IMG/VR virus record: IMGVR_UViG_3300030202_002165
DNA: 29,364 nucleotides
Reading direction: 5' to 3' (one strand)
From: an uncultured virus (IMG/VR IMGVR_UViG_3300030202_002165)
Lineage: Duplodnaviria; Heunggongvirae; Uroviricota; Caudoviricetes
In this document: one piece after another, positions 5,047-28,103 of the stretch
Position numbering within the stretch: the stretch's first letter is position 1
Layout of the letters: each line of letters begins with the position of its first letter
The notes under the pieces: model-generated
The model's database searches: none
What the model was told of the DNA's origin: nothing
Seen by the model: only the letters and a program-made list of their open reading frames with translations
Position numbers and translations under genes: made by a program

Positions 5047-5388
5047 CTACTCTTCACACAGGTAATTACATATATCATATAAACTATATGTTAATGTTAA
5101 TTCTTCACCGGCTTCAATCTTTTTTATAGTTTTCAATTTTTTGTAATCTGTATTTTCATCATCGTCTATTAATTCACAGTTAGCTTCTTCAGAATGATTA
5201 ATAAATCCGCCAAGTGGCGTACGTATATATTCATGCTGAAAATTTGGATCATACACATGGCTAATACCAACTTCAATATCTTTTGGCACATCATCTTGAG
5301 CAAATATACCTGCTCCGTGTATTCCTGAAGGTCCTATAGCTAAATAGTCCGGCAATGGTTTGTAAGGTTTTTTATTTTTCATTTTCAA
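5047..5388 (-). CDS. SET-domain protein (putative protein lysine methyltransferase)
   Basis: SGIHGAGIFA (GxG), GGFINHSEEANC (NHS motif), IEAGEELTLTY (ELxxxY). Confidence 0.85.
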   Translation of the reverse strand: MKMKNKKPYKPLPDYLAIGPSGIHGAGIFAQDDVPKDIEVGISHVYDPNFQHEYIRTPLGGFINHSEEANCELIDDDENTDYKKLKTIKKIEAGEELTLTYSLYDICNYLCEE

Positions 5389-8519: not shown

Positions 8520-9380
8520 TTAAAAAATATACCGTATTTTATTCCACGGTATTTTGGAATTGTGTAACTGTTTAAAATCAGCTATAAATTGAGATTTCAT
8601 TCCTAATTTATATCTAACATTTTCTCCACCATACTGAGATTTCTTTATTTCCTGTTTATTTAGGACCCAAAGATCTACTTCAGTAGCAGGATTTTTAGTT
8701 AAGTTAATTGTATGTTTCTTAAAGTTATGAGTCAAGAATATACATTCTGACAACACTTCTTTTTTATAGGATACATGATCATTCATCATATCAAACAACT
8801 CTGAGTAATCATCTAACCACCCATCGTAAACTATAATAGGACTATAATTTACGTGTACGTCATACCCTGCTTCTATAAATGTATTAATAGCTTTTATTCT
8901 ATCTATAATTTTAGAAGTATGAGGCTCGTGTAGATCTGACTTATGTTGAGGCATTAAGCTAAATCTAATACGTATTTTCTTTAGAGGATTAAAGTCTAAC
9001 AACTTAGTATTTACATACTTTGTTGCAAAGCTGCCCATAGCAACAGGGTGATCTCTAAAGAACTCGAAGATTCTTTCCCACTCGTGGTGTTTAGCGTGCA
9101 GCGCAAAGTCCTCATTACAACTAATGTCGTAAGTTGTAAACTCTGCATGCGTTTGATTAGGTTTTTCCACTGGTGTGAAATACGCATGATTATTGACTGA
9201 AGTCAATATATCACCCGTATTCACAGCAATAGATAATCCCTCATCTTTATGGCGTTTCATATAACAGTATGAACAGTTATATAAGCAGCCATAACCAAAA
9301 CTTGGACTTATAAAATCTGTGGATCTACCAGAAGGACGTATTTTAAACGTCTTCCTGGTATCCTTAGTTATGAGTCCCAT
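8520..9380 (-). CDS. Spore photoproduct lyase-like radical SAM protein
   Basis: GCLYNCSYCY (CxxxCxxC), ISCNED (equivalent to the SPL H-donor Cys region), FATK, IRFSLMP, RIKAIN..IEAGY. Confidence 0.85.
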   Translation of the reverse strand: MGLITKDTRKTFKIRPSGRSTDFISPSFGYGCLYNCSYCYMKRHKDEGLSIAVNTGDILTSVNNHAYFTPVEKPNQTHAEFTTYDISCNEDFALHAKHHEWERIFEFFRDHPVAMGSFATKYVNTKLLDFNPLKKIRIRFSLMPQHKSDLHEPHTSKIIDRIKAINTFIEAGYDVHVNYSPIIVYDGWLDDYSELFDMMNDHVSYKKEVLSECIFLTHNFKKHTINLTKNPATEVDLWVLNKQEIKKSQYGGENVRYKLGMKSQFIADFKQLHNSKIPWNKIRYIF

Positions 9381-22976: not shown

Positions 22977-23357
22977 TTAATATTTATGTGTTAATTCATC
23001 GTTAGGTAATACTTGTTTAATAGTTTTTATCCTTACAATTCGTTCATAGTTTGTATCTTGTTCTATAATACAATTAGGATTCTCATCATTATTTAATACA
23101 CATGCTATACCTAAAGGCATAACCTCATCCCAATCAGTTTTATTTATCCACTGACCAAAGAACTTATAATGTATTAATGCATGATTTGTGTGTGGTAACC
23201 TATCTTCAGCTACCACACACTCTTCAATGATTGTATCTTTTGGAATCTTATTTATAGCAAATACACCATAACCTCTTCCTTGAGATGCTCTAATTTCAAT
23301 ATCATTGCTTCTTATTAATGTTGATTTATATAAATCATTACCAATTTTCTTTATCAT
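22977..23357 (-). CDS. Second SET-domain protein (vSET-like, variant NHS motif)
   Basis: SQGRGYGVFA, IIEEC, PLGIACVLNNDENPNC, VLPNDELTHKY. Confidence 0.8.
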   Translation of the reverse strand: MIKKIGNDLYKSTLIRSNDIEIRASQGRGYGVFAINKIPKDTIIEECVVAEDRLPHTNHALIHYKFFGQWINKTDWDEVMPLGIACVLNNDENPNCIIEQDTNYERIVRIKTIKQVLPNDELTHKY

Positions 23358-26365: not shown

Positions 26366-26474
26366 TGAACGAATTGCACCCCGGGGGTGTTCAATCCGTA
26401 GAAAGTAGGTAGGGTGGTTTCACAAATACCCCCACACGTTCACAAATCTCCCTCAAAAAAATTTTTTTTATTTG
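26366..26474. repeat. Strand-switch element: GC palindrome, direct repeats and A/T tract
   Basis: CACCCC-G-GGGGTG (26377-26389), TTCACAAAT at 26419 and 26439, then an A run abutting a T run at ~26455-26469. Confidence 0.6.
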
Positions 26475-26528
26475 AAAATTTAACATTACCTTAACACTGC
26501 CTAGAGAAAAGAAAGTTAAGTTTGTAAT

Positions 26529-26600
26529 ATGAAAACAATAGATTTATCACCGGTAATATATATTTTTTTAATGATTTCTATATTTTTAATTGCATTGTAA
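26529..26600 (+). CDS. 23-aa hydrophobic peptide, not in the ORF track
   Basis: MKTIDLSPVIYIFLMISIFLIAL*; TAAGTTTG (TAnnTTTG) lies 4 nt upstream. Confidence 0.35.
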   Translation: MKTIDLSPVIYIFLMISIFLIAL

Positions 26601-26619
26601 AATATTTTTACTACTTTTG
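26590..26619 (+). promoter_or_regulatory. Bacteroidota-type sigma70 promoter
   Basis: TTG at 26590-26592 and TACTTTTG (TAnnTTTG) at 26612-26619, 19 nt apart. Confidence 0.6.
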
Positions 26620-26628
26620 TCCCGCAAT

Positions 26629-26868
26629 ACTTTCATCCCTTGGTAACCAAAAACGGGATTAGACATCGGATTGGTAGTTCTAAATAAGAACGAGATTTTC
26701 TCCGGTAGTTGCAAAAGAGTAGCGTATAAGCTATGGTTAGGATAGATTGCACACAGGTAAGTGCGGTGAATTAACATCAGTATTACTATCCTTGGGTCCC
26801 CAGAGTAAAATGGGAGAACTATCATAGTGAAATCCAAACTTGAAACTAACGTCCACAAGGGGGAAAGT
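26629..26868 (+). ncRNA. Candidate ~240-nt structured non-coding RNA or structured 5' leader
   Basis: The ends pair (26629-26642 with 26856-26868). Nested helices with G-U pairs are valid on +. Starts ~10 nt after a TAnnTTTG element, is GC-richer than its flanks, and has no credible ORF. Confidence 0.6.
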
Positions 26869-26913
26869 TATATCCCTTTGAGAAATATTAATAATTATAA
26901 AAAAATAAAAACA

Positions 26914-27696
26914 ATGGTAAATTACAATTCAATTACTGTAGATAGTCCAGGTACAGATAGAAGACCTATATCAAGAGTAGTAATAAATGAAAATGTTACA
27001 CTAAGAGATTTTGAAACAGGTGAGACAATATTTTTAGCAATAACAGGAAATAGTGATATTAGTATTACATTACCATCTCCAAAAAAAGGATTAAACTTTA
27101 CGTTCATTAATACACTATCTCCGTCAGGAACTGGAGATGCAGTTATTACTAGTGGAAAAGGAAATGATAATATAGTGTCACATTCAATTGGTGGCACAAG
27201 TGTTGCAGCTACTGCTACTATTTCTTTTACAAGTAAACCACACGAAACTAAAGTACTTACAATAGTAGATGCTGATGGTACTTCATTTACTTTTGAAGTT
27301 GATGATGACGGTGATGGTGTAGTAGGTAGTAATATAGCTTTGAATATGGGTGGATCCAGCACTGCTGCAGCAATAGCAACTGAATTAGCTTCTGAAATTA
27401 ATGGTGAAGCAACTTTAGATATAACGGCAACTAATCCTACTGCTTCAACGGTATTGCTTACTATGGATGAAACTGGTACTGCAGGAAATACTACTATAAC
27501 GAGTGATTTTACTAACTCTACTGTTCCTGCAGCTTTTACAGGAGGTAGTGATGGTGGTAATAATTTACTAGCAGATAATATCACAGTAGAAGCTGCTTCT
27601 ATAGGAGGTGAGTGGTTAGAATTTATGGCTGATGCTAATTTCTGGTACTGTAAAGTAACTAAGAGTGCTAATTCTTCAATAACTATGCAAGGATAG
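26914..27696 (+). CDS. Putative virion structural protein (260 aa; likely start ATG 26914 rather than GTG 26827)
   Basis: T/S/G/A-rich beta protein with ITLPSPKKGLNFTFI and terminal LEFMADANFWY; A-rich leader before ATG 26914; own terminator. Confidence 0.65.
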   Translation: MVNYNSITVDSPGTDRRPISRVVINENVTLRDFETGETIFLAITGNSDISITLPSPKKGLNFTFINTLSPSGTGDAVITSGKGNDNIVSHSIGGTSVAATATISFTSKPHETKVLTIVDADGTSFTFEVDDDGDGVVGSNIALNMGGSSTAAAIATELASEINGEATLDITATNPTASTVLLTMDETGTAGNTTITSDFTNSTVPAAFTGGSDGGNNLLADNITVEAASIGGEWLEFMADANFWYCKVTKSANSSITMQG

Positions 27697-27718
27697 TATT
27701 TATTAAGATTATTATAAG

Positions 27719-27750
27719 ATGGGTGGTAAAGTAATTTACTGCCCATTTTT
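27719..27750 (+). terminator. Intrinsic terminator
   Basis: ATGGGTGGTAAA-GTAA-TTTACTGCCCAT-TTTT; GNRA loop and G-U pairs valid on +. Confidence 0.8.
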
Positions 27751-27778
27751 ATTTACATTGAAAAAATTTTTAAAATCA

Positions 27779-27811
27779 TTTGGAAGTATAAAGAAATATT
27801 TTATATCTTTG
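27779..27811 (+). promoter_or_regulatory. Canonical Bacteroidota sigma70 promoter
   Basis: TTTG (27779-27782), 21 nt spacer, TATCTTTG (27804-27811), 22 nt upstream of the groES ATG. Confidence 0.75.
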
Positions 27812-27833: not shown

Positions 27834-28103
27834 ATGAAATTCAAACCAAACGGAAACTGGCTAGTCTTGCCAGATCCAACAATTACACAAACAGAGTCCG
27901 GAATATATTTAGACGAAAAGACAGCAGACGAAAATGCTAAAAAGTCTAATGTATTAGATGTATTAGCAGTAGGTCCTAACTGTATTTTTGTAAAAGCAGG
28001 GGATACTGTAATGGTAGATCCTAGAACAGAAGCTGTAAGAGCTGTGATAGATGAGAAAGAGTACTTACTTATAGGTGAGCACCAGATTTTAGGAAAGTGG
28101 TAG
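27834..28103 (+). CDS. groES: GroES/Cpn10 co-chaperonin
   Basis: KPNGNWLVL, TESGIYL mobile loop, VLAVGP, VKAGDTV, EHQILG. Confidence 0.9.
   Translation: MKFKPNGNWLVLPDPTITQTESGIYLDEKTADENAKKSNVLDVLAVGPNCIFVKAGDTVMVDPRTEAVRAVIDEKEYLLIGEHQILGKW

Follow-up and report, generated by a model that had tools for sequence, protein, structure and literature searches.

The stretch analysed here, referred to as the window, comprises 29,364 nucleotides of DNA from an uncultured virus (IMG/VR record IMGVR_UViG_3300030202_002165). A minus-strand replication block, encoding PolA, DnaB, a primase and rIIA/rIIB, is followed from 26.6 kb by a plus-strand block, which in the window opens with a groES-like gene (27834..28103, plus strand), the first gene of the late block. 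In relatives, the late block continues after groES with HU/IHF, terminase, portal, capsid and a giant protein containing the polymerase motif D[FY]DID. The terminase of these relatives is 43% identical to Suoliviridae records, their capsid matches the Pfam family Crass_capsid (PF23898, E 5e-81), and the D[FY]DID motif lies within a protein of more than 2000 amino acids in the genomes G002 and G005. Given that the relatives carry a crAss-type terminase, capsid and giant D[FY]DID protein, the window phage is, judged by gene content, a marine crAss-like phage, the marker genes having been checked on the relatives. The replication block also encodes two small SET-domain proteins (5047-5388 and 22977-23357, both on the minus strand; Pfam E 1e-8 and 1.7e-7) and, between rIIA and rIIB, a spore-photoproduct-lyase-like protein (8520-9380, minus strand). 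A similar layout, with a strand switch, a chaperonin and a terminase, is found in the gut phage cr114_1 (L499, 18140-19063 and 915-1179), which has a 920-nt gap without genes after its capsid gene; the model of the RNA described below finds no match there.

A structured RNA is encoded on the plus strand at 26624..26876, at the head of the plus-strand block. In all, 122 distinct full-length copies were recovered, and the 3' end was placed where conservation stops (about 26874). The original prediction had located a Bacteroidota promoter element, TACTTTTG, at 26612-26619, and both its letters and its coordinates are correct. It had also proposed a structure beginning about 10 nt past this box; the RNA is real, but it starts at 26624, 5 nt earlier than proposed. 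In flavobacteria, the sigmaA -7 box TAnnTTTG spans positions -12 to -5, according to excerpts of PMC9723704, and the box at 26612..26619 gives a +1 at 26624. The spacing between the box and helix P1 is 4 nt in 89 of the 122 copies, 5-8 nt in 26 and 33-34 nt in 3; the remaining 4 have no box, in a search that accepted TTTA as a fallback, and these sit behind an upstream gene. In the 89 copies, the promoter geometry would place the +1 on the first base of P1. The claim of a host-type Bacteroidota promoter beside the strand switch is therefore supported.

A cargo gene of 260 amino acids, belonging to no family, lies directly behind the RNA with no promoter between them (26914..27696, plus strand). 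The unit formed by the RNA and this gene is closed by a strong intrinsic terminator (27716..27759, plus strand; -16 to -17 kcal/mol), whose stem is preserved by base changes in the window, L001 and L004, the only 3 of 35 cargo loci with a strong terminator ahead of the groES promoter. The groES/late operon has a separate -7 box at 27804..27811 (plus strand), and in 108 of 108 loci such a box of its own lies no more than 90 nt from groES. No gene separates the RNA from the groES promoter in 73 of 121 loci, while the other 48 carry unrelated cargo genes between the RNA and groES, mostly without a promoter of their own and starting as near as about 20 nt behind the G-run of the RNA. As groES has its own promoter and 73 of 121 loci have no intervening gene, a leader role is unlikely, and the cis-regulatory leader suggested by the original prediction is correspondingly weakened. 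A 3' U-run is present in 35 of 73 cargo-free loci versus 6 of 48 cargo loci, a trend that is not significant after kinship correction (median p 0.125, 94 rows). The site 3' of the RNA appears as a cargo hotspot, where we observed a 62-amino-acid cysteine-rich protein, LamG-like and other structural-looking proteins, and a basic 70-amino-acid protein.

Two further elements were noted upstream of the RNA. At 26517-26600 (plus strand), a second TAnnTTTG box has its +1 on the ATG of a 23-amino-acid hydrophobic peptide, a leaderless small ORF that ends inside the promoter of the RNA and has a clear homologue at equal distance in 20 of 111 loci. At 26375-26470, conserved spaced G-tracts precede a CAC..TCAC motif and an A/T tract; the spaced G-tract element adjoins the first leftward gene, on its upstream side, in most relatives. 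It is a candidate early promoter for the virion polymerase, or a candidate genome end or packaging site. With regard to public RNA runs, 10 of the 12 listed contain part of the stretch and 3 contain half or more of its words. Contigs from four runs span 26654-27191 (X1 and X2, which seem to be a single data set) and 26690-26937 (X3), as well as pieces of early genes. These contigs were not counted as support for expression, as DNA carry-over is possible and contigs carry no information on strand, ends or level.

The alignments showed the predicted RNA to fold into two compact, multiply branched domains, in which single-stranded motifs are invariant while inserts at the periphery vary. The 5' domain (26624..26712) is closed by P1 (26624-28/26708-12) and comprises P2 (26636-39/26655-58), P3 (26665-70/26701-06), P4 (26677-81/26687-91), whose AAAUA loop is present in 117 of 122 copies, and an invariant UUUUC at 26696-26700. 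The 3' domain (26717..26841) comprises a long-range helix (26717-20/26838-41), a single pair 26724:26834, P7 (26732-37/26821-26), P8 (26739-45/26786-92), P9 (26749-52/26761-64), P10 with an AAUUAA loop (26765-68/26775-78) and P11 (26795-26800/26813-20). The long-range helix is restricted to the main subtype: it can pair in about 95 of 122 copies and fails in divergent subtypes. An AGGGGG run and the 3' tail follow at 26858..26880; the G-run is intact in 121 of 122 copies, and the tail forms a weak, variable hairpin, with a U-run in some copies. The divergent subtypes have exchanged P1 and P3 wholesale and added peripheral hairpins. Peripheral variants include an extra hairpin after P1, an extra GNRA hairpin in P2 and an insert of about 60 nt in P4, the last of which replaces the otherwise invariant AAAUA loop in L046, L049, L054, L142 and L181.

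Covariation supports 10 helices in the two domains. In a MAFFT alignment of 43 main-type copies, 99.4% of 2234 cells are paired in the comparative fold, a score that favours this fold since it was read from the tested sequences themselves. Both sides have changed in 21 of its 52 pairs, a number reached by 0 of 500 shuffles and compared with at most 7 pairs in slid controls; doubly changed cells number 180, where shuffles give 53.5 and slid controls no more than 16. Across the 122 copies, nine column pairs exceed the maximum of 20 tree-based null simulations, all of them in P1, P2, P4, P8, P9 and P11; this alignment was hand-anchored, with P1 and P4 anchored by complementarity, so that both lean towards the result. 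The original prediction had noted that its G-U pairs work on the plus strand only, and the plus strand is supported: over 39 pairs and 122 sequences, G-U cells far outnumber A-C cells (368 versus 11), which assigns the RNA to the plus strand.

The fold originally proposed, a rod with paired termini, is not the conserved one. All of its complements can be drawn in this genome, and its terminal helix is part of the window's own minimum-energy fold. However, its 48 pairs hold in 80.8% of cells in 43 homologues, compared with 99.4% for the comparative fold, and only 10 pairs have changed on both sides, where shuffles average 10.7 and 414 of 500 score at least as high. In the same homologues, 71.6% of cells are paired for the terminal helix and 56.4% for UAGC/GCUA; the terminal pairing exceeds a probability of 0.5 in no more than 5 of 41 sequences. 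Among the nested pairings, AGGAUAG/CUAUCCU, the GCAC/GUGC core and the CCC/GGG hairpin are conserved; the other listed helices fall outside the conserved fold. The covariation and conservation expected of a genuine RNA are thus strong in the homologues, though for another fold than the one first drawn.

Folding energy is less telling. The window has a z-score of -2.48 on the plus strand, with 3 of 200 shuffles as good, and -1.77 on the minus strand (6 of 200); in 25 of the 122 homologues, the mean is -1.0 (plus) and -0.9 (minus). Given these modest homologue scores, energy by itself would be weak support. In 41 sequences, the comparative fold is about 8 kcal/mol less stable than the predicted minimum, which suggests that tertiary contacts, a partner or co-transcriptional folding would be needed. 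A candidate pseudoknot joins UAUA at 26725-28 to the tail at 26869-72; its changes are one-sided and wobble-compatible with none two-sided, and it is unproven. Pairing of the G-run with UUUC is uninformative, as both sides are invariant. The 70 column pairs with the highest covariation scores include none that links one loop to another.

The modest z-scores could be taken to favour chance folding, or the signal could reflect constraint on the antisense ORF at 26586-26858. The covariation lies far above the controls, and the antisense frame is open in only 4 of 122 copies, with lengths that fall in all three frames, and no antisense ORF is conserved. This explanation is therefore refuted, and we assign it a negligible probability; the antisense ORF was rejected as a source of constraint.

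The RNA was found to be a constant component of its clade. All 122 distinct full-length copies come from marine viral contigs, with a mean identity of 73%, and 88 columns are near-invariant (unchanged in at least 120 of 122), many of them unpaired. The RNA measures about 250 nt in the window and about 240-330 nt in homologues. In the pattern scans, 352 of 423 sequences match, of which 331 are complete and 122 distinct, 21 having been left out because they were truncated or had no anchor. Loosening the DNA patterns in IMG/VR revealed no intermediate homologues (71 of 422 loci have no profile match), while a metagenome scan added 120 further loci, all matching the sequence profile, with no new type among the lowest-scoring loci examined. 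Among loci selected by groES, 63 of 67 carry the RNA, and the remaining 4 have groES at most 370 nt from the contig edge. Among 80 loci selected by terminase, 47 extend at least 300 nt above groES and all 47 carry it; the other 33 are too short. It is present as a single copy in 10 of 10 long records. On these sequence surveys, it is a core, single-copy gene in every clade member that could be checked. One metagenome contig with both the RNA and groES (L533, 303,891 bases) is about 3.5 times the usual genome length, which could reflect misassembly or a concatemer.

Outside the clade, no relatives were detected. A blastn search of 50,697 GenBank phage records gave only 34-nt AT-rich chance matches, and a single pattern found nothing in GTDB genomes, although diverged forms escape such a pattern. 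For remote homologues, the covariance model covers the 3' domain, the 5' domain being covered by a sequence profile only. This model has no match in any of five reference phages (cr114_1, ProJPt-Bp1, Fpv1, phi14:2 and IAS), where no candidate survived the initial screen, and its unfiltered run on two loci gave a best E of 0.1, without the core. Rfam 15, whose families include tmRNA, RNase P, SRP, 6S, introns, riboswitches and pRNA, has no match in the window at gathering score. At E up to 10, there are two chance matches (E 3.9-4.1), both outside the RNA and neither a ribozyme, and at E up to 1 the RNA of five divergent loci is not matched. The initial impression that the RNA is undescribed was thus borne out by Rfam. 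No description was found in the literature; in Fremin 2023 (PMC10690425), 8495 candidates of 29-151 nt were predicted from IMG/VR, and that set may list a fragment. On comparative grounds, we consider the RNA to be a real, uncatalogued family of structured phage RNA.

The closest resemblances among known RNAs are of two sorts: the RNA is similar in kind to GOLLD/ROOL but differs from them in sequence, size and distribution, and its position is like that of put/EAR/conAn2. Like GOLLD (RF02032) and ROOL, it is phage-encoded, multibranch, rich in covariation and of unknown function, and GOLLD/ROOL also have a variable periphery around a conserved core (excerpts of 10.1101/2024.12.08.627333). In contrast, it measures about 250 nt rather than about 660-830 nt, has no Rfam match and is present in 10 of 10 records, compared with a sporadic 2 of 10 for GOLLD. 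The 3' domain of RF02032 does not match it, although the same model finds a true GOLLD in G005 (212 bits, 2.2 kb away), at a separate locus on the opposite strand. GOLLD and ROOL associate with tRNA arrays, whereas the window, G002 and G005 contain no tRNA genes (ARAGORN finds none in the window). GOLLD and ROOL also form homo-oligomeric cages via kissing loops; no covariation between loops was seen in the present RNA. Two relatives carry GOLLD itself in their early block, at a distance of about 2 kb from the RNA (L506, 12186-12568, 212 bits; L441, 4835-5220, 222 bits; both minus strand). The marine crAss-like Cellulophaga phage phi14:2 produces abundant intergenic non-coding RNAs without known function (excerpts of 10.1101/2020.03.07.982082). 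Unlike the present RNA, these lie among early genes (g004-g006), and our model finds nothing in phi14:2. Excerpts of the crAss001 transcriptome paper (PMC8375218) contained nothing relevant. The conserved fold also differs from 6S RNA, a single rod with paired termini and a central bubble, in having two multibranch domains, the terminal helix holding in the 71.6% of cells given above. Several further candidates were rejected: a Shine-Dalgarno mimic, as a perfect GGAGG core occurs in the G-run of 0 of 122 copies, and group II intron domain 5/6, a tmRNA 5' end, SRP helix 8, a T-box and group I P7, which have no Rfam support and whose key positions vary.

Among the alternatives to a trans-acting RNA, the main rival, which we nevertheless regard as unlikely, is a cis-acting processive antiterminator akin to HK022 put, EAR or conAn2, in which the nascent RNA would stay on the host polymerase through the 65-kb late block. 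Those elements are likewise structured RNAs at the start of very long operons read by host polymerase (excerpts of PMC9378689 and PMC8191782), and the present RNA is always the first transcribed element of the late block. Its size overlaps that of conAn2 regions, given as 260-600 bp in excerpts of PMC8191782, and host polymerase reads the late genes of phi14:2 (excerpts of 10.1101/2020.03.07.982082). The two complete genomes that were inspected each have one strong terminator behind the capsid module, and the roughly 49 kb of genes beyond it show no recognisable strong promoter. The RNA does lie between its own promoter and the long operon; however, the second, downstream promoter bypasses the RNA in 108 of 108 loci, and the operon, unlike those of put, EAR and conAn2, is not terminator-rich: over about 66 kb in two genomes, sense and antisense intrinsic terminators number 1 versus 1 (G002) and 4 versus 5 (G005). 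The window terminator at 27716-27759 is reached only by transcripts carrying the RNA, and a Pfam scan of 16 + 36 proteins found none that is NusG-like. A ConAn1-type neighbour was sought beside the RNA, but no gene is constant there; several small genes have no assignment. Unlike put, EAR and conAn2, many copies end in a hairpin of their own. Another regulatory reading, a riboswitch or attenuator, would have downstream transcription gated by two alternative folds, the comparative one and the originally proposed rod with its pairing between the P2 C-run and the G-run. The short alternative cores CCC:GGG, GAU:AUC and GUAG:CUGC can pair in 41-43 of 43 sequences, and some copies allow the G-run to fold into a hairpin resembling a terminator. 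These cores are made of invariant bases nearly without two-sided change, the alternative terminal pairing is probable in few sequences (the 5 of 41 above), most loci have no gene before the next promoter (73 of 121) and the cargo genes share no common function, all of which renders such a switch improbable.

The remaining readings assign the RNA a role in replication, catalysis or packaging. A primer or R-loop RNA follows the logic of ColE1 RNA II and the T4 origin: the folded body would position the G-run on the template strand and prime the phage PolA at the strand switch. The single-copy occurrence at a constant site beside the divergence, the presence of PolA and a separate 5'-3' exonuclease, and the intact G-run, which shows no G-to-A change although internal wobble pairing would tolerate one, are consistent with this. 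However, the phage codes for its own primase and DnaB, cargo genes may begin about 20 nt behind the G-run, and the only evidence for an origin is a skew that tracks gene direction; we hold this reading to be improbable, if marginally less so than the switch. A new ribozyme, with itself or another RNA as substrate and the invariant junction bases as its catalytic core, would account for the 88 near-invariant columns, many unpaired, alongside tolerant peripheral inserts, and for the possible pseudoknot tying the 3' tail back. Rfam yields no ribozyme at the relaxed thresholds given above, the window, G002 and G005 have no tRNA genes, and the RNA-run contigs reveal no joint or defined end, so that catalysis has about the same low probability as the switch. 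Finally, phi29 pRNA is likewise an essential-looking structured RNA of a podophage, encoded near packaging functions; it has two interlocking complementary loops. A packaging-motor or virion RNA of this type would fit a core gene heading the terminase/portal/capsid block. In contrast to pRNA, the present RNA has no Rfam match, no covarying complementary loops among the top pairs and an AAUUAA loop that is not self-complementary in some copies. Packaging here is performed by a different enzyme, a crAss-type large terminase, and no match is found in the five reference phages, whose terminases are related, which makes this proposal very improbable.

The explanation that we favour, giving it about an even chance, is a stand-alone, single-copy core RNA of the marine crAss-like clade that would act in trans through its shape. 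The host sigmaA RNA polymerase would start at 26624, the first bases closing P1, and the transcript would fold into the two domains and end just past the G-run, either at a weak terminator or by trimming of a longer transcript of RNA plus cargo. It would then work in middle or late infection as a folded particle or scaffold like GOLLD/ROOL, binding a partner that evolves slowly, most probably a component of the host such as its RNA polymerase or ribosomes. This reading is favoured by the core single-copy status, the covariation, the promoter register and the independence from downstream genes, and by an invariant core within a varying periphery. The terminator that closes the RNA unit before the groES promoter in the window, L001 and L004 points the same way, as do the precedents of the phi14:2 non-coding RNAs and of GOLLD in 2 of 10 clade records. 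Against it stand the unvarying placement in front of the late genes, unnecessary for an RNA that acts in trans, the rarity of that terminator (3 of 35 cargo loci), the 4 of 122 copies without their own promoter and the lack of loop-loop covariation as a sign of self-assembly. The fold about 8 kcal/mol above the predicted minimum, the loss of the association between U-run and cargo after kinship correction and the RNA runs, which give assembled contigs only, weigh in the same direction.

The promoter, start and fold of the RNA are sharply defined, and its 250 nt can be synthesised in vitro as a single molecule, which renders its structure, self-assembly, catalysis, polymerase binding and antitermination directly testable. 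An outcome in favour of antitermination would also be notable, only three RNA-based processive antiterminators having been described according to excerpts of PMC8191782. Large structured phage RNAs such as GOLLD and ROOL are sporadic and without known function; the RNA described here is unrelated to them, yet it is kept throughout the checked clade. It is possible, though doubtful, that it represents a new functional class: a two-domain, pseudoknotted core RNA of 250 nt in a lytic phage clade that binds and reprograms host Bacteroidota RNA polymerase or ribosomes for late expression, or that is catalytic. If so, it would give crAss-like phages their first example of an RNA factor that looks essential.
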